This document shows positions 7,003-40,895 of a stretch of 55,165 nt of DNA, in pieces. Numbering within the stretch: position 1 is the stretch's first letter; every line of letters begins with the position of its first letter. The notes under the pieces were generated by a model. It ran no database searches, was not told the DNA's origin, and saw nothing but the letters and a program-made list of their open reading frames with translations. This stretch comes from a virus (taxonomy: Duplodnaviria; Caudoviricetes), in IMG/VR virus record IMGVR_UViG_3300033144_001879, positions 1-55,165 of that record. One strand, 5' to 3'. A program made the translations under genes and the position numbers.

Positions 7003-7689
7003 ATGACGAAGAAGAAGAGTCCGGCAAAGCGCAAAGTCCGAAGTGCGCCGAAAGCGAAGCCGAAGAAGAAACGGGTCACGAAGCGAACGGCAAAAGCCGC
7101 CGTGAAGAAAGTCGCGAAGAAGCGCGCGGTTCGTGTCGAGCGTCCGTCGAAGAAGACGAAGAAGAAAGCCGCGAAGAAGAAGACGAAGAAGAAAGGCGGC
7201 CGCCCGAGTAAGTTCAAACCCGAGTTTCAAGAGCAAGCGAAGCAACTCGCCGAGCTTGGCGCGACCGATGCGCAAATGGCGAAGTTCTTCGGCGTTACCG
7301 AGACAACGCTCAACAACTGGAAGAAATCTCACGCGAAGTTTTTTGAGTCCCTAAAGCTTGGGAAAGCGGTCGCCGACGATCGGGTCGAGAAGTCACTCTT
7401 TCAGCGCGCGAACGGTTACGAACACGAAGAAGAGAAGATCCATTTCGATCGGTGGGGCGACGTTTGTCGAGCGAACACGATCAAGCACTATCCGCCGGAC
7501 ACGACCGCGTGTATTTTCTGGCTCAAGAATCGCCGGCCGGATGACTGGCGCGACAAGGTCGAAACTCAGCACACGGTCACACCGGGCGAAGGCGGCTTGA
7601 TCGTTCCGATCGGGATGGACGTCGAGGCATGGAATAAAGCGGCGGCGCGTCAACAAGCGATCATGAAGAGCGGGACCGGCGGCGAGTAG
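7003..7689 (+). CDS. terS: Terminase small subunit with histone-H1-like Lys-rich N-terminal extension
   Basis: GRPSKF, HTH GATDAQMAKFFGVTETTLNNWK, PPDTTACIFWLKNR..WRDK; immediately upstream of TerL. Confidence 0.88.
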   Translation: MTKKKSPAKRKVRSAPKAKPKKKRVTKRTAKAAVKKVAKKRAVRVERPSKKTKKKAAKKKTKKKGGRPSKFKPEFQEQAKQLAELGATDAQMAKFFGVTETTLNNWKKSHAKFFESLKLGKAVADDRVEKSLFQRANGYEHEEEKIHFDRWGDVCRANTIKHYPPDTTACIFWLKNRRPDDWRDKVETQHTVTPGEGGLIVPIGMDVEAWNKAAARQQAIMKSGTGGE

Positions 7690-7691
7690 AC

Positions 7692-9173
7692 GTGAACGGA
7701 CCGGCAATAGCCGCGACGACGGAGAGCCTTGTCGCACCATTGCCGGTTTCCGCCGGCGTCTGGACGGCTCTAGAGGGCTCTCAACGGCTCTTCTTGAATT
7801 GCCCGCATTTCGAAGTTTTGTACGAGGGAACTCGGGGGCCGGGAAAAACCGACTCGATGTTGATGTGCTTTGCGCAGCGCGTCGGGCTCGGTTACGGCGA
7901 CCGATGGCAAGGCGTGATCTTTCGGCGCGAGTACAAGGAACTCGACGATCTCGTCAAGAAGTCGAAGCGGTGGTTCTACGAAATATTCGGCAACGACGTT
8001 CGATGGCTTGCTTCGAAATCGGATTACAAATGGGTGTGGAAGACCGGCGAAGAACTCTCATTCCGAACCGGCAAAAACGAAGACGATTATTGGAATTATC
8101 ACGGACACGAGATCCCGTTTCTCGGTTTCGAAGAACTCACGAATTGGGCGTCGCCGGCCTTTTACTTGACGATGTTCTCCGTCTGTCGTTGCGGAGATCC
8201 GCGCGTTCCGTGCATGGTCCGAGCGTCGGCGAATCCGTGGGGTAAAGGTCACGGATGGGTGAAGCTTCGCTTCATTGATAACAGTCCGCCGGGGATTCCG
8301 TTTCTCGATCCCGACACGAACAAAACGCGCGTTCGGATCTTTGGCTCGATCTCCGAAAACCCGTATCTCACCGACGAATATTTGAACACGCTTCGGAGCG
8401 TCGAGGATCCGAACAAGCGGAAGGCATGGATCCTCGGCGACTGGAACATCTCGGCCGGCGGGATCCTCGAAGGCGCATACGACGAGACCACTCACGAGAT
8501 CGCGCCGTTCAAGATCCCGGCGTCGTGGCGCGTCGATCGTGCGTTCGATTGGGGATCCTCGAAACCGTATTCGGCGGGATGGTTTGCCGAGAGCGACGGC
8601 TCGCCGGCGACGATCACGAACGAAGATGGAACGGAAACGAAGAAGCACTTCCCGCGCGGGACCGTCTTTCATATCGCCGAGCTTTACGGGTACAACGGAA
8701 AACCCGATGTCGGCGTGAAGCATACGAACAAAGAAATTTGCGAGCGCGTGAAAGAAGTCGAAGCCGGCTTGTGTCCGCGCTTGTTGAAGAAAGGGACGAT
8801 GATTTACGACGGACCGGCCGATGCCTCGATCTTCGACGTGATAAACGGCGACAGTTACGCGGACGAAATGTCGCGGAACGGCGTGGTATGGTTGGCAAGT
8901 TACAAGGGCAAGGGATCACGCGTTCAAGGTTGGGACCGACTTCGCTCGATGTTGCTCGCCGCAAAACGCGGCAATCGAGAAGAGCCCGGATTCTATGTTT
9001 TCAACACTTGCCGAAATTGGATTCGAACCGTCCCGGTGTTACCGCGCGACGACAAGAACCCGGACGACGCGGATTCCGAAGCCGAAGATCATTGCGGAGA
9101 TATGACCCGCTATCGGTTGCTTCGTGAGAAACCGCAAGAGCCGCAATTGATCGAAATAGGTTGGACTACTTGA
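7692..9173 (+). CDS. terL: Terminase large subunit
   Basis: YEGTRGPGKT, LGFEELT (Walker B), ASANP, FDWGSSKP, ADASI, EDHCGDMTRY. Confidence 0.95.
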   Translation: MNGPAIAATTESLVAPLPVSAGVWTALEGSQRLFLNCPHFEVLYEGTRGPGKTDSMLMCFAQRVGLGYGDRWQGVIFRREYKELDDLVKKSKRWFYEIFGNDVRWLASKSDYKWVWKTGEELSFRTGKNEDDYWNYHGHEIPFLGFEELTNWASPAFYLTMFSVCRCGDPRVPCMVRASANPWGKGHGWVKLRFIDNSPPGIPFLDPDTNKTRVRIFGSISENPYLTDEYLNTLRSVEDPNKRKAWILGDWNISAGGILEGAYDETTHEIAPFKIPASWRVDRAFDWGSSKPYSAGWFAESDGSPATITNEDGTETKKHFPRGTVFHIAELYGYNGKPDVGVKHTNKEICERVKEVEAGLCPRLLKKGTMIYDGPADASIFDVINGDSYADEMSRNGVVWLASYKGKGSRVQGWDRLRSMLLAAKRGNREEPGFYVFNTCRNWIRTVPVLPRDDKNPDDADSEAEDHCGDMTRYRLLREKPQEPQLIEIGWTT

Positions 9174-9185
9174 GGGAATGAAATC

Positions 9186-10706
9186 ATGACAGTTAAAGCA
9201 ACGCACCCGGATTATTCCGATCGCGCGAACTCGTGGGAGAAAATGCGCGACGTGATCAACGGAGAAGAAGCGATCAAAGCCGGCGGCGTGAAGTATCTTC
9301 CGCAACCGAGTGGACGTGACGACGACGATTATTTGCGTTACGTCGAACGCGCTCAGTTCTTCGACGCGACGAGCAAGACTTCGGCCGGGATGGTTGGCTC
9401 GATCTTTCGGAAACCGCCGACGGTTGAACTTCCGAACGCCATCGAGTATTTGAACGATGATTCGGACGGGAAAGGAACACCGCTCGAACAACTCGCGAAA
9501 GATGCATCGAGCGAAGTGATCGATCTCGGACGTGTCGGGATCATGGTCGATATGCCTTCGGTCCCTGAAGCGAAGCGTCTCGACGAAGAGCGCGCTCTCA
9601 ATGCCGAAGCTCGGCTCTATGTTTATTCGGCCGAGTCAATTATCAATTGGTCTTATCGGCAAGTCGGAAGCGTTTACCAATTGGCGCGAGTTGTTTTGAA
9701 AGAGACGATCGAAGTTGAAGGCGACGACGAGTTCGAGGTTAAAGACGCGACGCTTTATCGCGTATTGGATCTCGAAGACCAGTCGGAAGAACTCGCGGCC
9801 GGTTATCGTGTGCGACTCTTCGAAGAAGACGCCGACGGTGAGATCGGCGACGCGACCGAATACCGACCGACGCTTCCGAACGGCGAGCGGCTCGACTTTA
9901 TTCCGTTTACGTTCGTCGGCTCGAATGACAATACGTCGAGCGTCGACAAGCCGCCGCTTCTCGACATCGCGAACGTAAACGTCGGGCACTATCGGAACTC
10001 GGCGGACTACGAAGACTCGTTGTTCATGGTTGGACAACCGACGCCGGTAATCACCGGGCTCGACAATCAATTCATCGAGAAGCACAAAGGCTCGTTTGTT
10101 GTCGGGTCTCGAACTGCTTGGCTCTTACCTACCGGATCGACGGCGGATATGCTCGAATCGACGCGAGATCTCGGGGCGATGGCGGGCGCTCTCGATCGGA
10201 AAGAAAAGCAAATGATTCAACTCGGCGCGAAACTGATCGACTCGAATCGTGCCGGCGTGGAAGCGGCCGAGACGATCAAGCTTCGGCAAGCCGGCGAAGC
10301 GTCCGTTCTCGGATCGATCGCCTCGAACGTGAGTCGCGGCTTTACGATTGCGCTCAACTGGCTTTCGTTGTGGATGTCGGGAACCGGTGACGATGTCACG
10401 TTCGCCGCGAACACCGACTTTTTCCCGGCGCGTCTTTCTTCGGCGGATCTGAAAGAACTCGTCGCGAGTTGGCAAGGCGGCGTGATCACTTACGGAACGC
10501 TGTTCGAAAACTTGGTTGCCGGCGAAATTGTAACCGCCGGAACCGACGTCGAGGATTACGAAGCCGAACTCGAAGAAGAGGCGCTCAAGAATCCGTCGCC
10601 GCCACTCGGCGACGAAGATCTCGACGACGACGACGAAGACGAAGACGAGACAATCGTCATTGTTGAAGAAGAGGAAGAAGAGGAAGAAGAGGAAGAAGAG
10701 GAATGA
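9186..10706 (+). CDS. Portal protein (DUF4055-like) with poly-acidic C-tail
   Basis: Follows TerL; HPDY...YLP...Y..RA.F, KPPLLDIANVNVGHYRNSADYE. Confidence 0.9.
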   Translation: MTVKATHPDYSDRANSWEKMRDVINGEEAIKAGGVKYLPQPSGRDDDDYLRYVERAQFFDATSKTSAGMVGSIFRKPPTVELPNAIEYLNDDSDGKGTPLEQLAKDASSEVIDLGRVGIMVDMPSVPEAKRLDEERALNAEARLYVYSAESIINWSYRQVGSVYQLARVVLKETIEVEGDDEFEVKDATLYRVLDLEDQSEELAAGYRVRLFEEDADGEIGDATEYRPTLPNGERLDFIPFTFVGSNDNTSSVDKPPLLDIANVNVGHYRNSADYEDSLFMVGQPTPVITGLDNQFIEKHKGSFVVGSRTAWLLPTGSTADMLESTRDLGAMAGALDRKEKQMIQLGAKLIDSNRAGVEAAETIKLRQAGEASVLGSIASNVSRGFTIALNWLSLWMSGTGDDVTFAANTDFFPARLSSADLKELVASWQGGVITYGTLFENLVAGEIVTAGTDVEDYEAELEEEALKNPSPPLGDEDLDDDDEDEDETIVIVEEEEEEEEEEEEE

Positions 10707-11245
10707 AACCGGGTCTCATTATCGGAATAACCGGTTGCGCCGGATCCGGCAAAACGACGCTTGCGGATTTCTTTTCGTCGGCGTACTTCGCGACGCCGTT
10801 GTCGTTTGCGGATCCGATCAAAGCCGCGTTGAATGCGGCCTTCGGTTTTACCGGCGAGCAATGGCTCGACCGCAATTGGAAAGAGCAAGTCGATTTCGAA
10901 CTCGGGATCTCGCCGCGTGAGTTGATGCAAACGCTCGGGACCGATTGGGGGCGGAATATGATTTGCTCCGACGTTTGGGTGAAGTTGCTTTTCTCGAAAT
11001 GGAAGAGCGCCGGTCGACCGTTCGCGGTTGTCGCTGATATTCGTTTCGATAATGAAGCGCGGGCAATTCTCGCCGAAGGCGGAATCGTTGTGAATGTCGA
11101 GCGGCCGGAGATCGAGAAGGTCGCCGATCATGTTTCCGAAGATGGGATCTCGCGCGAACTTATTTCGGTAACGGTTTACAACATCGGAACGGTTGACGAA
11201 TTGACGCGACTCGGCGAAGCCGCGATCATTGCCCGGATCGAATAA
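10703..11245 (+). CDS. Deoxynucleoside monophosphate kinase
   Basis: IIGITGCAGSGKTT, SFADPIK, SPRELMQTLGTDWGR, VADIRFDNEA, HVSE. Confidence 0.9.
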   Translation: MKPGLIIGITGCAGSGKTTLADFFSSAYFATPLSFADPIKAALNAAFGFTGEQWLDRNWKEQVDFELGISPRELMQTLGTDWGRNMICSDVWVKLLFSKWKSAGRPFAVVADIRFDNEARAILAEGGIVVNVERPEIEKVADHVSEDGISRELISVTVYNIGTVDELTRLGEAAIIARIE

Positions 11246-12321
11246 TGCCGAAGACCGTCAACGAGCTTCTTCGCGATTCGTCGATTAAACATTCAATTTA
11301 TGTGACGCGATACACGACCGGCGTCGTGAAGCAAATGCTCGCGTTGATCAATAAGACCGATCAAGACATTTTGCGACGCCTTCGCTCCATGAACCTGCCC
11401 GGAGCCCGGACGCCTTATCAGCGGGCAAGACTCGAAAAACTGCTATCAGGGCTAAGGGGTATAAACGAAGCCGGCTACGGGGCGTTCAATGCGGCTCTGC
11501 GCAAGACGTTTATTTCGTTCGCGACGTATGAACTCGACTTCATGGCGCGGCAAATCGAGGCCGCGATCGTTGTCGACTTCGAAGCCGTCGTGCCGGCGGC
11601 CGGGACTGTTTACTCGGCGGCGATGACGACGCCAATGCAGGGAAAGTATTTCAAAAACTGGATGAAAGATCTTGAGGCGAACAAGATCCGGGCGATCAAC
11701 GACGCAATTCGGATCGGCGTCGTCGAGGGAGAGACGAACGCGGCGATCGTGAGTCGGTTGCGCGGAACTCGTGCGGCCGGATACAAAAACGGCGTAATGG
11801 GAATTCACCGGAGACACGCCGAAGCCATCGTTCGAACTTCGGTCAATCATCTTATGAGTACGGCGCGGCGAAACCTGATCAACAAGAACACGGACGTTCT
11901 TGCCGGCTGGCAATACGTCGCGACGCTCGATGGTCGGACAACTGATATTTGCATGAGTTTGGACGGCAACTTTTACAAGGTGAGGGCCGAGGGACCGACG
12001 CCGCCGCAACATATCAATTGCCGATCCGCGATGTCACCGGTCACGAAGTCATGGAAAGAAATGGGGATCGATAAAGAAGAGTTGACGCCGGCGAAGCGCG
12101 CCTCGATGTCGGGTCCGGTTCCGGCGAAGACGACTTATCAAACTTGGCTCAAGGGACAAGGGAACAAATTTCAGAACGACGTGCTTGGCAAAACGAAAGC
12201 GCAACTCTTCCGCGATGGCGGCGTGACGCTCGATCGTTTCGTCGACGCTTCCGGCCGGAGTTACACGCTCGCACAACTCGCCGCGAGAGAAGCGCAAGCT
12301 TTTGCCGCGATCGGCGGATAA
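11245..12321 (+). CDS. Minor head morphogenesis protein (SPP1 gp7 / Mu gpF family)
   Basis: AEAIVRT, YVATLDGRTTDICMSLDG, PPQHINCRS. Confidence 0.92.
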   Translation: MPKTVNELLRDSSIKHSIYVTRYTTGVVKQMLALINKTDQDILRRLRSMNLPGARTPYQRARLEKLLSGLRGINEAGYGAFNAALRKTFISFATYELDFMARQIEAAIVVDFEAVVPAAGTVYSAAMTTPMQGKYFKNWMKDLEANKIRAINDAIRIGVVEGETNAAIVSRLRGTRAAGYKNGVMGIHRRHAEAIVRTSVNHLMSTARRNLINKNTDVLAGWQYVATLDGRTTDICMSLDGNFYKVRAEGPTPPQHINCRSAMSPVTKSWKEMGIDKEELTPAKRASMSGPVPAKTTYQTWLKGQGNKFQNDVLGKTKAQLFRDGGVTLDRFVDASGRSYTLAQLAAREAQAFAAIGG

Positions 12322-12347
12322 GCTTAAAGCTTCAGACAAGAAGAAAT

Positions 12348-12425
12348 CGGGCTCTCACGAATAGGGGTATTTCTCGGATGGTTTTACCCCTATTCGAGCC
12401 CGTAATACCCTCTTCGGAGAAAGGG
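12348..12425 (+). other. Structured leader: long hairpin plus a cUUCGg hairpin
   Basis: CGAATAGGGGTA/TACCCCTATTCG 12-bp perfect stem flanked by CGGGCT/AGCCCG; then CTC-TTCG-GAG. Confidence 0.6.
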
Positions 12426-12431
12426 CGAGCG

Positions 12432-12707
12432 GTGAAGATTTCGTTTGTGGTCGTGGTTTTGTTTTTGGTTTCGTGCGCAACGCCGACGCCGGAGCAACTC
12501 GCCGAGTGGGAGCGGGCGCGAGAAATGCGGCAATATGATCGCGTTGATTATTACGAAGAAATTTACTTGCCGGAGAAACATCGTTGCGATGCGTATTGGG
12601 TTGTTTATTCGGATAGCGTTGGAATGACGCGCCGGAATTCTATACCGTCAATTCATGAAATGAGGCGCGCTCGATGCATCCGAGATTTCTCGGAGATACT
12701 GTTTTAA
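12432..12707 (+). CDS. Putative lipoprotein
   Basis: GTG start; MKISFVVVVLFLVS-C signal peptide with lipobox. Confidence 0.75.
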   Translation: MKISFVVVVLFLVSCATPTPEQLAEWERAREMRQYDRVDYYEEIYLPEKHRCDAYWVVYSDSVGMTRRNSIPSIHEMRRARCIRDFSEILF

Positions 12708-12730
12708 CCAACGAAGGGAGAACCGAAAAA

Positions 12731-13285
12731 ATGAGCGATGATCAAGTGAAAATGAATCTTTGGCGGCGCTTCGAAGCCGTCGTGAAACCGCAATATATTG
12801 TCGCGGCGTTTGTCGTGTTGGTGCTTGTTGGCTTTTGCCATGAAGCGCGGGCCGAGGTCGAGCCCGGTGTTCAAGTCGAACTCGGCGTCGGATTCTTGTC
12901 GGGTGATTACTCGGAAGGTCAAGCGCTTTTATTGACGGAGACGTTTGCGAATAAATATTCAATCGGGATCGGTGTCTTTACCGAACAATGGGTCGTGCCT
13001 CGAACGGAGCCGCTCACGCGCGTTCCGCAAACGGCAATGGTTCAAGCGTACCGAAACGTTCGGATCTCCGAGAACTTCGGGCTCGGTCTCGGCGTCGCGT
13101 ACTGGAACGGAACGAGCCGCGCGGTCGGGAGTGAGTTCACGTTTTCGCTTTTGATTCGATACGAGATCGGCGATCACGCGACGTTGAACTTTCGACATTG
13201 GTCGAGCGCGGGATCCGGGTCGGTCGGCGGATCAAGGCCGCCGAACATGGGTCAAGATCTCTTTACGTTTGGTTGGTCGTTTTAA
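12731..13285 (+). CDS. pagL: PagL-like lipid A 3-O-deacylase (outer-membrane beta-barrel)
   Basis: Signal peptide ending ARA; alternating beta strands; RHWSSAG...PNMGQD motif like PagL HxSNAG...NxGxE/D; terminal Phe. Confidence 0.8.
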   Translation: MSDDQVKMNLWRRFEAVVKPQYIVAAFVVLVLVGFCHEARAEVEPGVQVELGVGFLSGDYSEGQALLLTETFANKYSIGIGVFTEQWVVPRTEPLTRVPQTAMVQAYRNVRISENFGLGLGVAYWNGTSRAVGSEFTFSLLIRYEIGDHATLNFRHWSSAGSGSVGGSRPPNMGQDLFTFGWSF

Positions 13286-13340
13286 GCGATACGCGAAAGC
13301 GTATAAAACCAATCCATACGCGAACGCGTATGAGAAAAGA

Positions 13341-13384
13341 AACGGAAACGCGGAACCCGGTGATCGGGCTCCGCGTTTTTCGTT
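13341..13384. terminator. Probable bidirectional intrinsic terminator
   Basis: AAACGCGGAACCCGG-TGA-TCGGGCTCCGCGTTTTT between convergent genes. Confidence 0.75.
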
Positions 13385-13391
13385 CAACGAT

Positions 13392-13811
13392 CTACCGAGA
13401 TTCGTCGTCCAATGAGACGTTAAGATTTATCGCCGCATAGGTGAAGCTCACTCCGTTGTCGAAACTCATGCTTCGGTCGTACTCGATGCCGACGTGATCG
13501 ACCGGCATTCCGGTGCGCTTCGTGAAACCGGTCAAGAGATCGAGAATCGTCTCTTCGGTTAACCGCTTCAGTTCTCGCGCGCCGGCTAACGTCTTGATGT
13601 CTTTCTCGGCGGCGGCGATTACGAGCAATTCTCGATATGACGGTGGTACGTCGGCGTACTTGATGACCGCGTCCGCTTCTTCGATGACTTCTCGCATTGT
13701 AAGATCGAAGCCTTCGATCGGATCGTCGATCGAATCGTTTTGTTGTGCGCTTGCCATCGCGTAACCGCAAAGCTTGTTGAGCATGAGTCGTGATTTCGTT
13801 GGGTTCTTCAT
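13392..13811 (-). CDS. Hypothetical protein
   Basis: 139 aa; GGGAGAACC-N6-ATG. Confidence 0.7.
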   Translation of the reverse strand: MKNPTKSRLMLNKLCGYAMASAQQNDSIDDPIEGFDLTMREVIEEADAVIKYADVPPSYRELLVIAAAEKDIKTLAGARELKRLTEETILDLLTGFTKRTGMPVDHVGIEYDRSMSFDNGVSFTYAAINLNVSLDDESR

Positions 13812-14044
13812 GACTTTGGTTCTCCCTTGTCGGTGAATGGTGAGCGAACTCGAAGCTTTTCTCGGATTACTCCGAGATCTTCTTCGACGTCGCTCAAGTA
13901 TTGAAGCGCGAGTTCGAGAGTTCGAATCGAGACGCTTGCGAAATTATTTCGGCCGCTTCCGTGCTTCCGAGAATTGGTCGCGATCTTGATTGTCTCTTTC
14001 ACGCCGGCGAGTTTTTCTTCGCTTGTTAGATGTCCGTAAATCAT
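13808..14044 (-). CDS. Hypothetical protein
   Basis: GAGGGAACC RBS; stop overlaps next start. Confidence 0.65.
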   Translation of the reverse strand: MIYGHLTSEEKLAGVKETIKIATNSRKHGSGRNNFASVSIRTLELALQYLSDVEEDLGVIREKLRVRSPFTDKGEPKS

Positions 14045-14058
14045 TTCGGTTCCCTCGG

Positions 14059-14277
14059 TTACAGAACGGTGACGCGATAATACCGCCAACCGTAATCGGC
14101 GGAGATCTTGCCGGACTTGATCAGGCTCCGAACGGCGGCGGCGGTTGAGTGAAAGTCGAAACGATAGCCGGGTTTCGTCGTGACGTCGGCATATTGACTT
14201 GTTGCGATGTCGAGTTCCGTTCCGCGCTTCTTGCCGGCGATGAACTCGGAGAGATCTTGAACGTTTTGCGATTTCAT
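14059..14277 (-). CDS. Hypothetical protein
   Basis: AGGAACC RBS. Confidence 0.7.
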   Translation of the reverse strand: MKSQNVQDLSEFIAGKKRGTELDIATSQYADVTTKPGYRFDFHSTAAAVRSLIKSGKISADYGWRYYRVTVL

Positions 14278-14291
14278 GATCGATGGTTCCT

Positions 14292-14609
14292 TTAATTAGG
14301 TTGGGTTAATTCAAGGTTGGTGTGGTCGAGTTTCTTCAGGTGGTGAATCGGAAGGTTTGGCGGTATCGATTGCCAGCCATCGGCCGCGAGGATCTTACAG
14401 GTCGCGACGAGTGCTTCCGGGTGCGCTTCTTTCATGTGCGCATGGAGTCGACCGCGTTGCTTGTTGCCTTCGCGGAAACCGGCTCCGCGACCGCGACCGC
14501 ATCGGCGCACGTCGACGAAGTTACAAAGCCGGCAACCGCGAGCGATTGCAAACGGTCCCTTCGTGACGGTGACGAGCGCGTCGGTTGCTCTTGTGATGTT
14601 GTGTCTCAT
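14292..14609 (-). CDS. Hypothetical protein with C2H2-like Zn motif
   Basis: CRLC...HMKEAHP; AGGAACC RBS. Confidence 0.7.
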   Translation of the reverse strand: MRHNITRATDALVTVTKGPFAIARGCRLCNFVDVRRCGRGRGAGFREGNKQRGRLHAHMKEAHPEALVATCKILAADGWQSIPPNLPIHHLKKLDHTNLELTQPN

Positions 14610-14627
14610 GAGTCGGGTTCCTTTAAG

Positions 14628-14807
14628 TCAAAAGACATTGAGCGGCGAACGTTGCTCTTGTTCGAGTCGGTCGATCCGACGAAGTGCGTTCGTCAATGCC
14701 GCGCGGAGTTCGAGAAGAATCTCGTCGCGGTTCGGTGTCGCGTCGCCGCTCAAGACGTCGGCGGCTTCGGATGCTTCGCCGTGAAGCAATGTATTGAAGC
14801 GACTCAC
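14628..14807 (-). CDS. Small coiled-coil protein (59 aa; not in ORF track)
   Basis: GTG start overlapping the upstream stop; LRAALTNALRRIDRLEQ. Confidence 0.55.
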   Translation of the reverse strand: MSRFNTLLHGEASEAADVLSGDATPNRDEILLELRAALTNALRRIDRLEQEQRSPLNVF

Positions 14808-14989
14808 GAGAAGATCCGCGCTTCGCGATAACGGCGAGCCTGTTTCTTCTTCGCGAGCTTCGAGATCTCTTTCGCTTTCCGCCGGCGCTTTTGCACGATG
14901 TCTTGCCGGTAGGAGTTGCGCCAGTTGTCGCCGACGTCGTGAAGGTCGGAGACGATGTCGAGCATCGTTGGTGCGGTTGTCGTGTTCAT
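14804..14989 (-). CDS. Small basic hypothetical protein
   Basis: AAGGGAAC RBS; MNTTTAPTMLD... Confidence 0.6.
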   Translation of the reverse strand: MNTTTAPTMLDIVSDLHDVGDNWRNSYRQDIVQKRRRKAKEISKLAKKKQARRYREARIFS

Positions 14990-15057
14990 GGTTGTTCCCT
15001 TTGTCGTTGGTCGTTGGTCGAGTGTGGATCTTAACCCGGCAAGCGGCCGGAGCGCAA

Positions 15058-15465
15058 TCAATATGTTTCGTCTTCGATGTACTTGTTCAGGGTCTTGGCG
15101 TCGTCCGAGAAGTGTCCGAGTCTTTCGCAATGCTCGAAGTGGTTCCGGTTCGTGTGATAAGCCGCCGGTCCGCGTTGGTTTTTCTTCGAGTCGATGAGAT
15201 AGGAAGTCCACAGTCTTTCGTGTCGGTCGTACCATGCGATTCGGATTCCGTTCGAAAACCATTCGTCGTCTTCGCTCCAGTTCGATCGGTGAAGAAGCGA
15301 CTTTTCTTTCGTTCGGTATTCGATCAAGCCATGCTCGTCGAGTTTCCAAAGCAAGCCGCGCTCGGCGCAATAAGTATCGATCGTGCGATTGCAGTCGTCG
15401 TAATCCATACCGACAAGCCACTGAAGGGCGCGTTCGGTGGTTCGTTGTCTTGAGAGTGTCTTCAT
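15058..15465 (-). CDS. Hypothetical protein
   Basis: AGGAACC-N6-ATG. Confidence 0.7.
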   Translation of the reverse strand: MKTLSRQRTTERALQWLVGMDYDDCNRTIDTYCAERGLLWKLDEHGLIEYRTKEKSLLHRSNWSEDDEWFSNGIRIAWYDRHERLWTSYLIDSKKNQRGPAAYHTNRNHFEHCERLGHFSDDAKTLNKYIEDETY

Positions 15466-15485
15466 TGTCGTGGTTCCTTTCGTGG

Positions 15486-15959
15486 TTAAGAGCGGAGCAT
15501 CCAAAACCCGTAAACGCATCGCGTACCGTTGCGGTCCGGGTTGTAAGTGTCTTCGATGACGTGGTGAATCATCGTCGTGTAATGTTTCGAGACGGCGACG
15601 ACGAGTCGCGCCTTCGGAAGTTCGTCATAGCGAAGGTGAATCTTGCAACCGGTTCCGATACCCATTGTCGGGATCCACTCGAAGCCGAGTTCGTTCATGT
15701 AGTCTTTGAACCACTTCCGGGTCGTGAAGATTCCGTTTCGAGCCGAGCGCTTTCCGGCCGATGCCGATTTGACTGTCGGCGAGCGCCGTTGCGTCGCGTT
15801 GCCGTGCGCGAGCCGATCATAGATCTCACGGTAAGGGCGTTCGGTTGCGATCGTTAGAGCGCGAGTCACGCAGTCTCCGGCGTTGCCTTTGAAGCCGGCC
15901 TCGGCGCGACCGCCGTCGTTGTATCTGAAGATCGTCGTTGTTGTCGTCGGGTTTTCCAT
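15486..15959 (-). CDS. Phage protein, possible papain-like Cys-His-Asp fold
   Basis: GDCVTRALTIAT...KHYTTMI...EDTY. Confidence 0.7.
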   Translation of the reverse strand: MENPTTTTTIFRYNDGGRAEAGFKGNAGDCVTRALTIATERPYREIYDRLAHGNATQRRSPTVKSASAGKRSARNGIFTTRKWFKDYMNELGFEWIPTMGIGTGCKIHLRYDELPKARLVVAVSKHYTTMIHHVIEDTYNPDRNGTRCVYGFWMLRS

Positions 15960-15960
15960 C

Positions 15961-16308
15961 TTAGAATTTCCTGAATGTTGTTCCGATGATTTCTTCGGAG
16001 TGAGTGCCGTCTTTCAGAACGATGTGCTTCACGGTGTTGTGCTTCACGCGATCGCCGGACTTGTCCCAAGTGTAACGGTCGGACTCTGGCGTCTCCGGGG
16101 AGAGATCGACGATCGGATCGTGAGTGACGAACTCTCGCGAGCCGTCGCGATGGTTGAGTGACACGCCGTCTTGATGAAGCGCTTTCTTGATTTGCTTCTC
16201 GACGCTTGCAATCGCGTCCGGTGTGTTCGAGTAAAGATGGATCGTCTCGCCGTAACACGCGACGAGAATCGAGCCGTTCTTCAATCCGTCTTTGAGTGGA
16301 TGCGTCAT
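15961..16308 (-). CDS. Hypothetical protein
   Basis: GAGG RBS; ATGA overlap. Confidence 0.65.
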   Translation of the reverse strand: MTHPLKDGLKNGSILVACYGETIHLYSNTPDAIASVEKQIKKALHQDGVSLNHRDGSREFVTHDPIVDLSPETPESDRYTWDKSGDRVKHNTVKHIVLKDGTHSEEIIGTTFRKF

Positions 16309-16763
16309 GATGTAAACCCTCGCGCTTTCCGGTTGGCTTTGTGGATTTCCATTTGCGCGTCGACTTCGTCTTCGTTGCCGCGATTGAAAGTTGACGGTGT
16401 GCAAGCTTTCAATTCGTCGCGATCTTCTCGGATGCCGTCTTGATAACCGAAAGAGTCGGATCCGTAACCACTTTCGAGAATCGACTCGTATCTCGCGATC
16501 GTTGATTCGATATTTCTTGCGGCGACTTCGATTGCTTTTGCGGCGGCGGCTTCGTCGGTTAAGAGTTTGAATGTTCCGCACGTTTCGGAAGCGGCGATCG
16601 GGGCGAAGTGGTGGCCGAGCATTTCGTTCGTGTCGCGGTCGTGCAAACACATTTGCTTTGCGCCGCAAGAGTGGACGCGGACTTGACGGAAAGAAATCGT
16701 TCCCTTGCCGTCCCAGTTTTCGATGAGAGTCGCGAGTTCGTTTTTCGTGAATTCTTTTGACAT
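16305..16763 (-). CDS. Hypothetical protein, first gene of island 1
   Basis: ATG follows the conserved leader CACGAGACCCGACC. Confidence 0.7.
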   Translation of the reverse strand: MSKEFTKNELATLIENWDGKGTISFRQVRVHSCGAKQMCLHDRDTNEMLGHHFAPIAASETCGTFKLLTDEAAAAKAIEVAARNIESTIARYESILESGYGSDSFGYQDGIREDRDELKACTPSTFNRGNEDEVDAQMEIHKANRKARGFTS

Positions 16764-16797
16764 GGTCGGGTCTCGTGAGTGGTCGGTCAATGTTGAG

Positions 16798-16826
16798 AAT
16801 GTACGCCTACCCGTTGGGTGCGCCAA
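16798..16826 (-). promoter_or_regulatory. Sigma70-type promoter P1 with operator in the spacer
   Basis: TTGGCG-17-TACATT; TACCCGTTGGGTG at 16808-16820. Confidence 0.75.
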
Positions 16827-17081
16827 GCAAAACGCAACACTTTTTGAAAGAAAGTTCGGAAGGTCAATGTTTACGCGGGTTTGAGCGTTCCTGATTTTCC
16901 TCGATTTCGACAAACTTCACGCGGTTTGCGCGCTCTTTTTGGCCGATAAAACGCTCCGGCGTGTTCCATCGACAATCGCGTCGGAGCCGTTCGTGGCGTT
17001 CACTCTCGCTCGTTCTTTCCATTTGCTGTGATCTCCGTTTGACGTGTCGCGAAGTATCGCACGAGATCGAATCATTTTCTT

Positions 17082-17360
17082 ATGCCGTTGTTTGTTCCCG
17101 AAGTCGCGGTCTATACTTGTCGAAAGGTTGATATTTTGAAGCGATTAAAATTGATACATTGCGCGGACCGGAGCCCGACGGGTGAAAGTTTGCACGAGCC
17201 GGAATATACTCTAGTGAGTTGTCCGGTTTGTAATTCGACGACAACGATCGAAGCGAACGTCGGAGCAATGACCCGAGACGGAAAGAACGTCGAGGGCGGA
17301 CACAAGCAACGCATTTGCGTTCAGTGTTTGATCGAAGGCAAGTTGACGCCAGTTCTTTAA
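17082..17360 (+). CDS. Zn-ribbon hypothetical protein
   Basis: CPVC...CVQC; start uncertain. Confidence 0.65.
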   Translation: MPLFVPEVAVYTCRKVDILKRLKLIHCADRSPTGESLHEPEYTLVSCPVCNSTTTIEANVGAMTRDGKNVEGGHKQRICVQCLIEGKLTPVL

Positions 17361-17381
17361 GAACGACGCGCTCAACTCAGC

Positions 17382-17417
17382 AAAGACAAACGGCGAAAGT
17401 CGTTCGTCTTTTTTTTT
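17382..17417 (+). terminator. Intrinsic terminator-like hairpin
   Basis: AAAGACAAACGGC-GAAA-GTCGTTCGTCTTT followed by a long T run. Confidence 0.7.
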
Positions 17418-17460
17418 GGCTCGCCGAGCGAGCATCACAAGACCCCGAGGGAATAGGAAA

Positions 17461-18225
17461 ATGCCTGACGTAGATCTCAAAAGTCCAGAAGTAAAAGCGG
17501 CGATCGCGGAAGCAGTTAAAGAAGCAACCGGCGGATTGCAAAAGCAAATTGACACGGCGGTTTCGAAAGCGACCGAAGGTCTCAAGAGCAAAAACACGGA
17601 GTTGCTCGGAGAGGTAAAGAAATTTAAGACGAAGGCGTCGACAGTACCCGACGACTTCGACGTGAAAGCCTACGAAGAAATGTTGAAGGCTCAAACGGAC
17701 GCGGCGGAAGACGCGGCGAAACAAGCGGGCAAGTGGGACGAGTACAAAGCGGAATTGGTCGCGGAGCATAAGACGCGAGAAGCGGAGTTACTTCAGGGTA
17801 ACGAGAAGCTGAAAGCGCAACTCGAAAATGTTCTCGTCACGAACGAAATTATGGGCGCGATTGGACGCGCGAAAGGCAACTCTGATTTGTTGATGCCGCA
17901 CGTCCGAACGCAAGTGAAATTGATTGAAGAGAACGGCGAGCAAGTTGCTCGCGTGATCGACAAGGCCGGAAACGCAAGAATCTCCGGCGCGGAAGGCGAC
18001 TTCATGAACATTGAGCAATTGCTCGGTGAACTCAAAGAGTCGGAAACTTTCGCACCATGTTTTGAAGGCTCACGAGCGACAGGGTCGGGCGCGGGCGGAA
18101 GCGGAAGCGGCGGAGCCGGTGGTGATAATCCGTTTTCAAAAGACACGCTCAATCTTACCGAGCAAGCGAGATTGAAGCGCGTCGATCCGGTCGCGGCCGA
18201 ACGATTGAAAAAGGCGGCGGCATAA
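17461..18225 (+). CDS. Capsid scaffolding protein
   Basis: Coiled coil, LKSKNTELLGE, Gly-rich linker, NPFSKDTLNLTEQARL; upstream of the major capsid gene. Confidence 0.85.
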   Translation: MPDVDLKSPEVKAAIAEAVKEATGGLQKQIDTAVSKATEGLKSKNTELLGEVKKFKTKASTVPDDFDVKAYEEMLKAQTDAAEDAAKQAGKWDEYKAELVAEHKTREAELLQGNEKLKAQLENVLVTNEIMGAIGRAKGNSDLLMPHVRTQVKLIEENGEQVARVIDKAGNARISGAEGDFMNIEQLLGELKESETFAPCFEGSRATGSGAGGSGSGGAGGDNPFSKDTLNLTEQARLKRVDPVAAERLKKAAA

Positions 18226-18254
18226 ACTTTTTTAACCATTGAAGGACAAAGCAA

Positions 18255-19241
18255 ATGGCCGCTACAAAAATTTCAGACATCATCGTTCCCGATGTCTTCG
18301 ATCCATATGTAACCGAGAAAACGGCCGAACTGACCGAATTATTTCTCGGTGGCATCATCAACCACGATCCGCAGTTCGACGAGCTTGCGAGTTCGGGCGG
18401 CACTATTTTGCAAATGCCGTTCTTCACTGATTTGACCGGAGCCGACGAAGTTCTCGCCGACGATGGTTCATTGACGGCGGGCGCAATCGGGACCGGTAAA
18501 GATCAAGCGCGGATGCACTTACGCGGCCGAGCTTGGGGCGTTAACGATTTGGCGAAAGCTTTGTCGGGCGAAGATCCAATGCGAGCAATCGCGGATCTCG
18601 TTTCTACTTATTGGGCGCGACGTTTTCAAGACGTCCTGATCGCTTCCTTGAAGGGTTGCTTTCTTGACGACGCCGGAGACGACGACGACATGAGTGTCGA
18701 CATTTCTCAGGCCGAAGGCTCGACTGCTGACGCAACCAATTGGATTGGTCCGGCCGGCGTAATTGCCGCCGCCGGTACACTCGGCGACGCCGCCGGTAAA
18801 CTCACCGCGATTGCAATGCATAGCGTCTGCTATCAGCGCTTGCAATTGCTCGAAGTGATTATCTACGAGCGTCCAGCCGGAACCAACATCAAGATTCCGT
18901 ATTACCTCGGTTATCGCGTGTTGGTCGATGACAATATGCCCGTTGTTGCTGGTGGAACCGATGGCTTCGTTTACACGTCGTATCTGTTTGGCGAAGGTGC
19001 GTTCGGATTCGGTCAAGGCTCCGCGCCAGTACCGAGTGAGACCGATCGCGATTCGTTGGCCGGTGAAGACTATCTCATTACGCGCAATCACTACATCATG
19101 CACCCTCGCGGTTATGCATGGGTAGAGACGACCGTAACGGGCGAGTCTCCGACGAATGTCGAGGCCGCTCTCGCCGTGAACTGGAATCGCGTCTATACGC
19201 GAAAGAACGTTCGTTTTGCTCAACTGAAGACGAACGGCTAG
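18255..19241 (+). CDS. Major capsid protein
   Basis: TKISDIIVPDVFDPYV, MPFFTDL, RGRAWGVNDLA, MHS, YLGYRVLVDD, MHPRG. Confidence 0.92.
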   Translation: MAATKISDIIVPDVFDPYVTEKTAELTELFLGGIINHDPQFDELASSGGTILQMPFFTDLTGADEVLADDGSLTAGAIGTGKDQARMHLRGRAWGVNDLAKALSGEDPMRAIADLVSTYWARRFQDVLIASLKGCFLDDAGDDDDMSVDISQAEGSTADATNWIGPAGVIAAAGTLGDAAGKLTAIAMHSVCYQRLQLLEVIIYERPAGTNIKIPYYLGYRVLVDDNMPVVAGGTDGFVYTSYLFGEGAFGFGQGSAPVPSETDRDSLAGEDYLITRNHYIMHPRGYAWVETTVTGESPTNVEAALAVNWNRVYTRKNVRFAQLKTNG

Positions 19242-33311: not shown

Positions 33312-36300
33312 ATGCGTTCGAACTCTGACAACTTTAACGAGTATAATTTCGCGGTCGCGAAAGAACTTCGGCTAGTTGTTCGGATCAATTTTCCGACGCC
33401 GATTTATCTCACGTCTCACTCGGGGATCTCCGGCATTCCGGCTAATCGAATCGATGGATGCCTGAAGAATGTTTCGAGTACGTCGCAACGGTTAAGCCCG
33501 GATCAAGGTCGCTCGACGATCGGTTCGATTTCATTCGACGCGCTAGATCTCGACGGAGAGATCACGACAGAATTCAGGGCGCAACAAGCCGCCGGCGAAG
33601 GTTTGGCCGGACGTCGGGTCATCCTGTATCGAGGCGGCGAAGGCATGGCATGGTCCGACTTCCGCGCCGAACAAACTCAGCAAATCGACGGAAGCGTCGC
33701 GTTTAATAAAGGCGTCTACAAAGTTCAGTGTGCCGACATTCAGCGCGCTATGCGGAAAGACATTTTCGACGTTGCGAAAACCGCGCTCGCCGCCGACTTT
33801 AATCAAGGCGCTTCGACGCTAAACGTTTTCGATACTTCCGAGTTCGAGGCTTGTACGCATAAGGCAAGCTTCGGTGATCAGCAATCCGGCTCGTATTATT
33901 ACGCGAAGATTAAATACGACAACGGCTTCGAAATTATCCGGGCAACTGGCAAGACGGCGGACTCATTTACGGGAGTAACTCGCGGCGTCTTCGGAACTAG
34001 TGACGTCGACCACGTTTTCCCGACTGGCGAAGACGACGATTCGAGCATCGAAATCGAGGAATATGTTTATCTCGAATTGCCCGCGCCGGCGTTAGCGTAT
34101 GCGCTTTTAACTGGCGACATTATTGGCGGCGGAACATTGCCGTCGAACTGGCATCTTGGCATCGATTCGGCGGACGTTGATCAACCTTCATTCGAGGATC
34201 TCGCCGAAGACTGGTTCGATTCGAGCGACTATTCGACCGGCCTGATTTTCCGCTTTCAGGGTGTCGGCAAAGAAGACGGAAAGCGTTTCATCGAGCGAGA
34301 AGTTTGCTTGCTTGCCGGCGCGTTCTTGCGAGTCGGAGCCGACGGCAATATCTACATAAAACAAATGACGGGAGTCATCGAGTCCGCCGATTACATTATC
34401 GAGCTTACGGAAAAAGAAATCGTGAAGTATGGCTCGGTTCGTCACTCACTCAATAAGCTTCGAAATATTTACGATGTCGAATGGGCGTTCGTCGATTTAC
34501 CGGGCGAAGATAAGCCGCGATTTGTTCGTCGGAATATTCTCGCCGACGCGACGTCGATCGCTATACACGGCGAGTCGAAACCGCTTGCTCTTAAATTCAA
34601 GGGATTGCACAACGAGCGCCACACCTATACGACGTTGATCAATCGGTTCGACGCGTTGCGCGATCGTTACGCGGGTCCGCCTATCGAAATGAACGTCGAT
34701 CTTTTACCGTCGACAAATGACATCGAGGTCGGCGATATTTGCCGGGTCGTTTTGGATGACGTGCGAGACTATGCCGGGACCGGTTCGCTTCGGCGCGCGT
34801 TTGAAGTTCAGCGAATTCGAGTCAATCAAAGAACCAACAAAGTGACCGCGACGTTATTCGGCTCGACGTTGAAGGCCGATCCAATTGTCGACATCGGAGC
34901 CGGCGTCAATTCGGAATTGCCGGATGGTTGGTATAGCTCGGCCGGAACCGACATGGACGGAGAACTGACGATCAACGGTTCCGGTGTCATGACGTCGAAT
35001 GGCTCGCTTACCGGCGGTACGACAACGCGAACGATTTATTATTATCTCGGCGACTTCACAATTCAAAACGGCGTGACGTTAACGACATCCGGTAACGTCG
35101 AGCTTCGCATTCGCGGACACTGTCAAATAAACGGAACGCTCAAATCCGAAGGCGGAATGCCGGCGGATACGAACGGGTTCCTCGGCGTCGGGCTCGGCGG
35201 AAACTTTGTCATGATTCGCGGGAGCGGCGAAGTTGTGTATTGGCGCGGACCGGCGACGGCGGATCATGGTCGCGAAGCGATGCCGATTTCCGAAATCGAA
35301 AATTTGGCCGGCGTCTTGACTGGTATTCGCTCGGATATGCGCGGGTGCGGTGGTGCGACCGGCGGCAAGGTCATGGAGTGGAACGGAAGTTCTTTCGTCG
35401 AAAAGGCGGCCGGCGGAAACGCCGGCGTCGGCGGTGGTTCGCCCGTTATCATTTCACGCGGCGCGGGTTACGGAGCCGGCGGCTCGACCGTTACGTCGGG
35501 AACCGACGGAAGTGTCGGCGCGAATTACGGCAACGAAGAAGCGGGCTCGGGCGGCGGCGGCGCACCCGGCGGCTTGCTCCATGTTCTCGACGGCTCGAAC
35601 GTCTCATTTCCAATTCTCGCCGGGAAGGTTGTCGCGGCATATGGAACGAGCCCGATCAAAAATAACAATCCGCTCACGCAAGGAAAGGCAAAAGCGGGAG
35701 ACCCGATAGATCTCGGTACGGCGGCGGCTCGTGTTGCGTATGTGCCGAAGAGTCGCGAGCCTTATCCCGATTACGTGAACGATGATCTCGGTCCGCAAGA
35801 CGGAGTCGACGGACAAGACGGCAACGACGGCAACGACGGCAACGACGGCGACCACGGCGATTCTGTCGACGTAATTTTTCAGCGATCGGCGACTCAACCG
35901 ACGACGCCGGATCCATCGGCCGGGGTTCCGGCGGGATGGTATGCGGATGTTGCAAGCGTTCCGGCGGCCGCGAATCCGTTGTGGTCTTCGTTCGGTACGA
36001 TACCGGGCGGCGGTTCGACTTATACATGGTTGACGCCGGTTCTTCTTGAGGCGTCGAATTCTCTTTACGTGCGCGGAACCGGTTACAACAACGCGTCGAA
36101 TCGAATCGTAAAGCTCGGCGGAGTAGATTTGAAAAATAGCGGCGGCATCGGGCTTTGTCTCACCGTTGTTCGCCGCGTTGACTTGGTCGAATTGTCATAT
36201 CACCGAGACGGTGGCGTCGGCGCGGACGCGAAGTCGCAAGTCTATAACACGTACTCAAGCGAAGACGATCGTCTCAAGCTACGCGATGCGCTTGTCGAAA

Positions 36301-39346: not shown

Positions 39347-39598
39347 ATGGATGAAGGCCGCCGGCAAAGAGAAAAAACAAGGAAACGAACAGTGGTCGAT
39401 AATAAATGCGGTGAGCGCTTGGCTACACTTGAAGAGAAAGCGAGAGTCGTCGAAGAAGACATGGTCGAGATTAAAGAAGGTCTCGACGCGATTCAATCGA
39501 CGCTCACGAAACAACGCGGTTTCTGGGCCGGCGTTACTTTCGTGATCACGCTCGCCGCGTTCTTCGCTCGCGAGCTTTGGATGAGGGTTACGACTTGA
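39347..39598 (+). CDS. Coiled coil plus single TM protein (holin/antiholin candidate)
   Basis: ERLATLEEK...GFWAGVTFVITLAAFF; upstream of endolysin. Confidence 0.65.
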   Translation: MDEGRRQREKTRKRTVVDNKCGERLATLEEKARVVEEDMVEIKEGLDAIQSTLTKQRGFWAGVTFVITLAAFFARELWMRVTT

Positions 39599-40074
39599 GA
39601 TTTACACGACGACCGGCCGGCGGATTCACGTCGGCGCAAATGCTTTCGCTTGCGCAACGCTTCGTCGGATCGAAAGAGGTTCCCGGCGCGATGTCGAATC
39701 CGATCATTCTCGCAATGCTCAAGCTCGATCTTGAATTTCCCGAAGACGATTCCGTTCCGTGGTGTTCCGCCTTCGTCAATTGGATTTGTTGGCTTGTCCG
39801 CTTTCCGCGCTCGAAGAGTTTGCGCGCCCGATCATGGTTGAACGTCGGTCGTGGAATCGAACTCGGTCGGGCAAGACCCGGAGACGTCGTCGTCTTTCAA
39901 CGCGGCTCCGGTCCGCAACCGGGCGCGGACGTCATCAAAGCGCCGGGTCATGTTGGTTTTTATGTCGGGATGTTCGGAGAATTTATCGAGGTTCTCGGCG
40001 GCAATCAATCCGACTCCGTGAAGGTCTCAAGATACCATGTCGGTCGCTTGTTGAGCGTCCGTCGTCTCACCTAA
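39577..40074 (+). CDS. Endolysin, NlpC/P60 (TIGR02594-like)
   Basis: DDSVPWCSAFVNW, ARSW, GDVVVF.R, GHVGF, VLGGNQSDSV; start uncertain. Confidence 0.9.
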   Translation: MDEGYDLRFTRRPAGGFTSAQMLSLAQRFVGSKEVPGAMSNPIILAMLKLDLEFPEDDSVPWCSAFVNWICWLVRFPRSKSLRARSWLNVGRGIELGRARPGDVVVFQRGSGPQPGADVIKAPGHVGFYVGMFGEFIEVLGGNQSDSVKVSRYHVGRLLSVRRLT

Positions 40075-40091: not shown

Positions 40092-40298
40092 ATGGCAATT
40101 TCCAAACCGTCAAGCACGATTCAAGCAACTGCGATCGCCGGCTTCGTTGCCGCGACAATTCTGCTAATTGTCAAGGCGAAGTTCCCCATCTTTTACTTGA
40201 TGATCCCGGCGGATTATCAACTTCACATGGTCGTCGCGATTGCGACTGCTATCGGTTGGTACAAGAAAGAAAACGTCTTGCCGTCCGCGCGGCCATAA
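40092..40298 (+). CDS. Putative holin (2 TM)
   Basis: Two hydrophobic segments; between endolysin and spanins. Confidence 0.7.
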   Translation: MAISKPSSTIQATAIAGFVAATILLIVKAKFPIFYLMIPADYQLHMVVAIATAIGWYKKENVLPSARP

Positions 40299-40747: not shown

Positions 40748-40895
40748 CGACTTCGCCGCGCTTTGCGAGCGCTCTCTCGATGATTGTGTCCGGCGGATCT
40801 TAACCGTCGCGGCTCAACGTGCCGAGTTCTACAACGCTCTCGGGGCGAAGCACGGAGATCTCGTGAACTGGATTGAGGGACTCGATGGTGACTAA
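40605..40895 (+). CDS. o-spanin (Rz1-like lipoprotein), overlapping Rz in another frame
   Basis: Lipobox LAAC; Pro-rich. Confidence 0.85.
   Translation: MTVSFAVVLIGLSLAACTTTPPIPEDPPKLTKPLVAMMPPPELPKLGDDFAALCERSLDDCVRRILTVAAQRAEFYNALGAKHGDLVNWIEGLDGD

Follow-up and report, generated by a model that had tools for sequence, protein, structure and literature searches.

A putative PagL-lineage outer-membrane barrel gene in the accessory island of an uncultivated siphovirus

An open reading frame (ORF) coding for a PagL-like outer-membrane beta-barrel protein was identified on the + strand, at positions 12731-13285, of the virus record IMGVR_UViG_3300033144_001879. The stretch analysed, called the window hereafter, is the whole of this record, which is 55,165 bp long and rated complete, and all positions refer to it unless a related contig is named. 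The ORF (P0002, 184 amino acids) probably encodes a divergent outer-membrane serine esterase of the PagL lineage and would be an accessory gene in the complete genome of an apparently non-integrating siphovirus with a diderm (Gram-negative) host, a reading to which we give a probability of roughly 60%. Indeed, the original prediction, which held the second of two adjacent ORFs to be a homologue of the lipid A 3-O-deacylase PagL, is supported by (i) a family profile, (ii) the predicted fold and (iii) the conservation of the catalytic residues. Both ORFs of the pair, the first with a lipobox and the second coding for a secreted barrel, are present on the + strand as had been described. The enzyme family itself is known; what is new is the presence of PagL-like genes, with a putative Asp-type triad, in uncultivated and apparently lytic phages.

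The PagL-like ORF and its export signal

The gene call of the source starts earlier, at 12674, and gives a protein of 203 amino acids (P0003). The start at 12731 is favoured here because of the N-termini of the homologues and of a Shine-Dalgarno-like site (GAAGGGAG). The codon-usage score of the ORF, 0.248 per codon, is inside the range of the confident genes of the same genome. Residues 1-41 (12731-12853, + strand) form a predicted export signal with a long n-region, a hydrophobic core and an A-x-A site; this signal-like N-terminus ends with HEARA before EV, the cleavage site being read by eye. In the structural model described below, two helices span residues 3-17 and 20-36, the barrel begins at residue 46, and residue 1 of the mature P. 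aeruginosa PagL structure (2ERV) aligns with residue 45. The family to which the protein belongs is compact, with about 140 mature residues.

The N-terminal extension shows a particular conservation. Residues N9, R12, E15, A16, K19 and P20 of the n-region are invariant in four of four close relatives, and the long n-region NLWR(K/R)FEAVVKP (window 12731-12790; relatives P0004-P0006) is conserved and predicted to be helical, which is unusual for a cleaved Sec signal.

Homology with PagL

At E ≤ 0.001, an exhaustive phmmer search matched 108 cluster representatives, one of which is the barrel protein of the window itself. An alignment of 94 sequences was assembled from 90 of the 107 non-self matches, the three nearest database relatives and the query. 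The remaining 17 matches (P0017, P0031, P0038, P0041, P0043, P0045, P0058, P0079, P0085-P0088, P0102-P0104, P0107 and P0111), which were fragments, partial matches or far longer proteins, were dropped before any counting, and all family counts below refer to the 94 sequences.

Among these sequences, 85 match the Pfam family PF09411 at E ≤ 0.01, and the three nearest relatives (39-54% identity) reach 30.3, 36.7 and 38.5 bits against a cut-off of 23. A profile made from the 94-sequence alignment finds P. aeruginosa PagL (2ERV_A; E 3.6e-7, 33.2 bits), the match covering residues 21-147 of the 150 in the chain and no other match being better than E 0.3, and a profile of four sequences reaches 2ERV at E 4.4e-4.

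Predicted fold

An AlphaFold2 model computed with the 94-sequence alignment has a mean predicted local distance difference test score (pLDDT) of 92.5 and a predicted template-modelling score (pTM) of 0.85. The eight-stranded barrel that had been anticipated is found in this model, with eight main strands between residues 46 and 183. After structural re-alignment, the best match is 2ERV_A (Z 16.7, root-mean-square deviation 1.6 Å over 120 residues, 18% identity), with OmpA (Z 15.4, 2.8 Å) and PagP (Z 12.5) as runners-up, and Ail and OmpX reach Z values of 10.8 or less and 9.7, respectively, versus 16.7 for PagL. The fold alone is not specific for PagL, since other eight-stranded barrels lie within about 1.3-2 Z units. 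A fold search of BFVD returned generic viral outer-membrane barrels only, none of which is named PagL.

Catalytic residues

The motifs first noticed by eye in the barrel protein were confirmed, namely RHWSSAG (residues 155-161), N172-M-G174-Q-D176 and a C-terminal Phe184, and they are more than chance resemblances since they are conserved across the family alignment. Indeed, His156, Ser158 and Gly121 are invariant in all 94 sequences, and Gly161, Asn172, Gly174, Asp176 and Phe184 are conserved in at least 90% of them. The HxS motif His156-Trp157-Ser158 (codons 13196-13204, + strand) is located at the end of strand 7, and N172-M-G-Q-D176 is encoded at 13244-13258 (+ strand). In the HMMER alignment to 2ERV, His156, Ser158, Asn172 and Asp176 correspond to His126, Ser128, Asn136 and Glu140. 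Asn136 is presumably the oxyanion-hole Asn of PagL, and the aligned position is Asn in 91 of the 94 sequences. The catalytic triad of PagL consists of Ser, His and Glu, and a conserved Asn belongs to its oxyanion hole (PMC4402001); the His and the Ser are essential in the Salmonella enzyme (PMC4958258).

Occurrence of PagL-like genes elsewhere

PagL-like genes are present on 22 related contigs, nine of which are further viral records from the viral-contig scans (three, then six new ones along with three repeats) and 13 of which come from a metagenome scan. Three contigs (L014-L016; 25-38% identity) have bacterial neighbours (amidohydrolase, cupin, deacetylase) and no PHROG matches; the other 19 made up the non-bacterial set used for gene-context counts. 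In three of these 19, the PagL-like gene abuts lysis genes: (i) in L009, the gene order is endolysin, 70-residue membrane protein, 173-residue protein, PagL-like gene and holin, and no lipobox ORF is present, (ii) in L010, the first codon of the PagL-like gene lies at the stop codon of an endolysin gene, the product of which is 69% identical to the endolysin of the window phage, (iii) in L024, the PagL-like gene and the start of a holin gene (phrog_1356, E 1.5e-4) overlap. The product of the gene that follows the PagL-like gene in L025 shows no resemblance to the holin of L009.

The other contexts are varied. In a T7-like lineage (L001, L004, L005), the PagL-like gene lies between the DNA polymerase and exonuclease genes and overlaps the stop of an upstream gene for a phrog_2524 membrane protein without assigned function. 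It is found within the replication region in L003, after a primase/helicase gene in L021 and L022, and next to a terminase or portal gene in L013, L019 and L026. A phrog_2524 member (394-789, - strand) also adjoins the PagL-like gene of L008, in convergent orientation. The N-terminal part of the phrog_2524 protein is charged, and its C-terminal part contains hydrophobic stretches that resemble, by eye, two membrane helices.

A tblastn search of GenBank phages (50,697 records) with four family members yielded no PagL-like match, and two pattern scans of 185,579 species genomes, relying on short exact patterns, found no close relatives. No PHROG family is common to the 94 members. Ten sampled clusters consist of one or two metagenome-derived sequences each and bear no informative name, one of them being called 'hypothetical protein'. 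The earlier statement that no characterised phage PagL is known stands: none was found in the literature searched, which covered few subscription journals, or in reference phage collections. One family representative, P0047, combines an N-terminal GIY-YIG nuclease part with a PagL-like C-terminal part, and may be a fused gene call or a case of a homing endonuclease inserted beside the gene; its matches in GenBank phages stem from the GIY-YIG half only.

Evidence against the assignment and alternative readings

Several observations weigh against the assignment of the barrel to a PagL-type esterase. The barrel protein matches no Pfam family, even at E ≤ 10, yields no usable match in NCBIfam or PHROGs, and stays below the PF09411 gathering cut-off; PF09411 has no match in a six-frame search of the genome, and the matches of the relatives are limited to the C-terminal half of the Pfam model. 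Foldseek alone does not separate PagL, Ail and OmpA, which all lie near E 1e-4. In the active site, the putative third residue of the triad is Asp176 where PagL has Glu140, a conservative change (position 176 is Asp in 85 members, Asn in eight and Glu in one); Ser159 stands beside the catalytic Ser instead of the common Asn; and the active-site loop carries a 6-residue insert that is unique among the 94 sequences. Moreover, the gene is 26 kb away from the phage's own lysis block, which looks complete, and in most related contigs it occupies unrelated places (replication, packaging and tail regions).

The first of these points concerns the family profile. A match to the PagL family had been expected from the original prediction; this held for the relatives at 39-54% identity and failed for the barrel itself. 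Because these relatives pass the cut-off, the missing direct match does not refute homology. On sequence grounds the barrel is placed in the PagL lineage by transitive evidence only, direct membership of the Pfam model failing.

An active PagL-fold outer-membrane esterase with another substrate or position of attack, i.e. another lipid A chain, a mislocalised phospholipid or a lipid of an unusual lipopolysaccharide, is an unlikely alternative to lipid A 3-O-deacylation. Such an enzyme could be suspected from the 18% identity to the solved PagL, from the restriction of the Pfam matches to half of the model, from the replacement of Glu by Asp in 85 of the 94 sequences and from the remodelled active-site loop of the window copy; in addition, no characterised orthologue anchors the specificity, since the close clade was not found in the 185,579 species genomes by the two pattern scans. 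However, the residues with a known importance in PagL are all present at the aligned positions, the barrel superposes on 2ERV at 1.6 Å, and the available parts of PMC4402001 and PMC4958258 describe no other substrate for the PagL fold.

The active-site loop deserves a closer description. As the original prediction had pointed out, HxSS replaces the usual HxSN: the residue following the catalytic Ser, which occupies the position of PagL Asn129 and is usually Asn in the family (Ser159 here; 13205-13207, + strand), is Asn in 74 members, Thr in 13, Ser in four (the barrel included), Cys in two and Gln in one. Between HxS and PNMGQD, an in-frame insert of 18 nucleotides (nt) at 13223-13240 (+ strand) encodes the Gly/Ser-rich stretch V165-P170 (VGGSRP), which the original prediction had not mentioned. 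Longer inserts occur in the same loop in four other members, with the motif kept. The pLDDT is 73 at residues 161-170, versus more than 94 in the flanking blocks. Judged from the alignment, Ser159 or the loop insert could weaken or alter activity, and neither of them removes a residue known to be essential.

The same two changes, located right beside the catalytic Ser, would also fit a catalytically impaired barrel, i.e. a structural moron of the Lom/Ail/OmpX type that would alter the cell surface or block a receptor without any chemistry. The failure of the barrel in a Pfam model that its relatives pass goes in the same direction, as do the abundance of small eight-stranded barrels in phages (BFVD) and the similar Foldseek scores of Ail, OmpA and PagL. 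Likewise, in L011 the PagL-like gene directly follows a J-like tail-fibre gene; lambda lom presumably sits directly after the J-type tail-fibre gene. Such a barrel without chemistry is nevertheless quite improbable, given that His156, Ser158, Asn172 and Asp176 are all kept, that Ser is found at the variant position in three other members and Thr in 13, and that longer loop inserts are tolerated in four motif-keeping members. The invariance of His and Ser in 94 of 94 sequences speaks for selection acting on catalysis in this family.

The upstream lipoprotein ORF

The first ORF of the pair (P0001, 12432-12707, + strand) encodes a small predicted lipoprotein of 91 amino acids with the lipobox LVSC. 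It starts with GTG, and an in-frame ATG at 12378 would give a protein of 109 amino acids. Its N-terminus (VKISFVVVVLFLVSC, continuing as ATP) contains a classical lipobox with Ala at position +2, a residue that predicts an outer-membrane location by the E. coli sorting rule. The mature protein, of about 75 residues, has two further Cys.

The codon-usage score of this ORF (0.006 bits/codon) is the highest among the six frames, yet it falls far short of the values of 22 confidently called genes of this genome, which average 0.32 and do not go below 0.19; the guanine plus cytosine content is about 0.49 at the ORF versus 0.546 genome-wide. The ORF is absent from the window's own proteins as listed in the protein database. 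No usable family match was obtained in Pfam (E ≤ 10) or PHROG (E ≤ 1), NCBIfam giving one chance-level row, no homologue was detected among 5.8 billion proteins, tblastn produced no match in the first 16 related loci, and a protein Atlas search gave leads below 0.9 only. The lipoprotein ORF is therefore less secure as a gene, its coding signal being weak, and we are unsure of it. It would be a lineage-specific orphan which, if expressed, may have an envelope role of its own.

The original prediction had treated the two ORFs as a two-gene envelope-remodelling unit; a conserved unit of this kind is not supported. A regular-expression search for lipoboxes was made within 1.5 kb of the PagL-like gene in the 22 distinct related contigs, and the window's lipoprotein was recognised by the same expression as a control. 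Four matches were obtained; they correspond to ORFs lying out of frame or antisense within other genes, or to the barrel ORF itself with its long start; no credible lipobox ORF is thus found near a PagL-like gene in these contigs, and the pair is not a conserved cassette.

A functional pair, as in the cassette of the original prediction, in which the lipoprotein would for example act as a receptor blocker or would anchor or control the barrel, seems improbable, although the two ORFs are only 23 nt apart on the same strand with strong hairpins on both sides, and both products are predicted to go to the envelope, the Ala at +2 of the lipoprotein included. Against it stand the lack of any lipoprotein homologue or PHROG resemblance at E ≤ 1, the empty lipobox scan of the 22 contigs and the weak coding signal. 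A complex prediction with the mature lipoprotein and the barrel scored 0.00 (mark 0.32), a value that speaks neither for nor against binding.

Phage genome and accessory island

The identification of the window as a phage genome was confirmed by its phage structural genes and by the completeness of the record. An exact direct terminal repeat of 114 bp is present (1-114 and 55052-55165), and a DnaB-like helicase gene is split over the record ends (54397-55164 and 3-764). The split gene and the terminal repeat are consistent with a circularly assembled complete genome. By its gene content, the genome is that of a siphovirus. It encodes in particular a small and a large terminase (7003-9173), a portal protein (9186-10706), a deoxynucleoside monophosphate kinase (10703-11245) wedged between the portal gene and a Mu-F-like head-morphogenesis gene (11245-12321), and a scaffold and a major head protein (17416-19241). 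Further genes code for connector, tape-measure and tail proteins, for RecE, RecT and SSB in one block, and for replication functions; tRNA genes are absent from the genome. The C-terminus of the portal protein is acidic, with a run of 13 Glu after DDDDEDEDE (10640-10706). The distal tail protein (33312-38879; 1,855 residues) contains several (GND)n / DGxDG collagen-like repeats and is almost without family matches.

The ORF pair opens a region of about 5.1 kb (12322-17415) between the Mu-F-like head gene and the scaffold gene. In Xanthomonas phage Bosa, the Mu-F part of which is 36% identical, a single small ORF lies between the same head genes, and the region is for this reason regarded as an accessory island. 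A viral-contig scan with the Mu-F-like protein found no close relatives of the phage. The two + strand ORFs come first in the island and are followed by small, mostly minus-strand ORFs without assigned function. About eight small minus-strand ORFs are found at 13392-16913, inside the head-gene module, and this block has just two PHROG matches (phrog_3754 and phrog_22363), neither with an assigned function.

The ORF pair is flanked by stable predicted RNA structures. The Mu-F-like gene and the lipoprotein ORF are separated by a stretch of 110 nt (12322-12431) that folds at -40.8 kcal/mol (z -3.87; none of 200 shuffles as stable) and contains a strong interrupted stem-loop (12348-12402, + strand), which has no U-run and encloses the alternative ATG at 12378. 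No convincing sigma-70-like promoter was found upstream of the pair. On the other side, three hairpins are predicted at 13286-13391, between the barrel gene and the convergent minus-strand gene at 13392-13811. This stretch folds at -44.5 kcal/mol (z -5.49), again with none of 200 shuffles as stable, and its last hairpin (13346-13378), with a stem of 14 pairs, is followed by a U-run in + strand orientation and is scored as a terminator on the - strand as well. No sequencing run, RNA runs included, is listed as containing 12322-13391.

Lysis block, host and lifestyle

The lysis block comprises (i) a single-pass protein resembling XhlA (39347-39598), whose score does not reach the Pfam cut-off, (ii) a CHAP endolysin (39577-40074; 28.4 bits versus 26), (iii) a two-helix holin candidate (40092-40298), recognised by its architecture only, without a family match, (iv) a spanin-like ORF with an N-terminal membrane helix and a coiled coil (40298-40747), and (v) an overlapping spanin-like lipoprotein ORF (40539/40605-40895) with the lipobox LSLAAC and a Pro-rich mature part. 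The architecture of both spanin-like ORFs was read by eye, and neither has a family match. The overlapped spanin-like pair, one member of which has a lipobox, points to a diderm host. Proteobacteria are the hosts of the GenBank phages with the nearest relatives of the Mu-F-like protein, the identity being only 36%. A reading of the ORF pair at 12432-13285 as a two-component spanin was ruled out, as its second ORF codes for a barrel and not a coiled coil and lies 26 kb from the endolysin. Since a pair with spanin architecture is found at 40298-40895, neither the ORF pair nor the barrel taken singly is considered to be the spanin of this phage.

No tyrosine or serine recombinase was found in the complete genome, and with no integrase or resolvase detected the phage is probably lytic. 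A role of the barrel gene as a prophage moron acting in lysogenic conversion, which was also considered, is weakened by the same finding.

Proposed function

As a PagL-lineage esterase, the barrel protein could act as follows. The signal peptide would export the precursor by the Sec route, and the host beta-barrel assembly machinery (BAM) would insert the eight-stranded barrel with its C-terminal Phe. Ser158, His156 and Asp176 would together make up the active site, Asn172 taking the place of PagL Asn136, and this site would then hydrolyse the ester-linked 3-O-acyl chain of lipid A, deacylation taking place in the outer leaflet of the infected cell. The barrel is probably made late, together with the head genes, because its gene is co-oriented with them and no separate promoter was detected for it. 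As infection ends, the under-acylated lipid A would loosen or curve the outer membrane, with possible effects such as an easier rupture of the envelope, the shedding of vesicles or an altered binding of phages by debris.

PagL expression increases vesiculation in Salmonella (PMC4958258). This effect, along with the three lysis-cassette contexts, is the reason for preferring an envelope role at the end of infection, which is nevertheless weakly supported, because the phage is already equipped with a seemingly complete set of lysis genes, located 26 kb away from the barrel gene. The analysis shows the homology, the fold, the conservation of residues, the phage setting and the lack of co-conservation with the lipoprotein; we infer the export, activity, substrate, timing and benefit of the barrel. 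The roles in superinfection exclusion, progeny protection or vesiculation that the original prediction had put forward are likewise conjectural. More speculatively, PagL-like barrels could represent an unrecognised class of late or lysis accessory proteins of phages, thinning the outer leaflet by lipid A deacylation until the outer membrane fails or forms vesicles when infection ends; some lineages could use them without spanins, and in the window phage the barrel would be auxiliary to the spanin pair. We regard a class of this kind as unlikely.

Lipid A remodelling enzymes are usually regarded as chromosomal, regulated tools of bacteria. If a clade of these enzymes is carried by lytic phages, viruses would modify the best-conserved component of the Gram-negative envelope while infecting a cell, which would be a new kind of phage auxiliary function. 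It could bear on the way in which phages without recognisable spanins breach the outer membrane, on the production of vesicles in infection and on the endotoxin content of phage lysates. At present, the assignment is a homology-based annotation in an uncultivated phage, with an altered active-site loop in the window copy.

Comparison with known systems

The closest comparison is with bacterial PagL (PF09411, 2ERV, Salmonella). The barrel shares with it the eight strands, the HxS motif located where strand 7 ends, an Asn that precedes an acidic residue by four positions, and a terminal aromatic residue. It differs in being phage-encoded and not chromosomal, in its position below Pfam detection, in having Asp instead of Glu, Ser for Asn129 and a 6-residue loop insert, and in the long conserved n-region of the signal peptide that its close relatives share. 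E. coli K-12, for its part, lacks pagL (PMC4958258).

A precedent for a lipid A deacylase as an accessory gene on phage DNA is provided by LpxR. In pathogenic E. coli, the gene of this lipid A 3'-O-deacylase is conserved beside that of the antiterminator Q, near PasD small RNA genes, and its context was traced by the authors of a bioRxiv preprint to a common bacteriophage origin (PMC13192938). In contrast, LpxR belongs to an unrelated family (PF09982) and removes a different acyl group. Moreover, its gene lies beside Q in prophage elements, whereas no integrase was found in the window phage.

Lambda Lom and the Ail/OmpX-type morons are, like the barrel, small eight-stranded barrels encoded among late genes. 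These phage morons are not known to have a catalytic motif, whereas the PagL-like family keeps an invariant His/Ser pair.

As regards the upstream ORF, T5 Llp and Cor are phage lipoproteins that block receptors. The lipoprotein ORF resembles them in coding for a small secreted lipoprotein, with two extra Cys, in a seemingly lytic phage; it differs in having neither a sequence-family match nor a conserved neighbour. No similarity of the lipoprotein to Llp or Cor was found in Pfam, PHROG or NCBIfam, the presence of Llp and Cor models in these databases not having been checked.

Finally, spanins (Rz/Rz1) and the disruptin gp28 of phage phiKT are phage functions directed against the outer membrane at lysis. 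The PagL-like genes found among lysis genes in L009, L010 and L024 recall these systems; the barrel, however, would trim lipid enzymatically, and would neither fuse membranes nor act as a cationic peptide.

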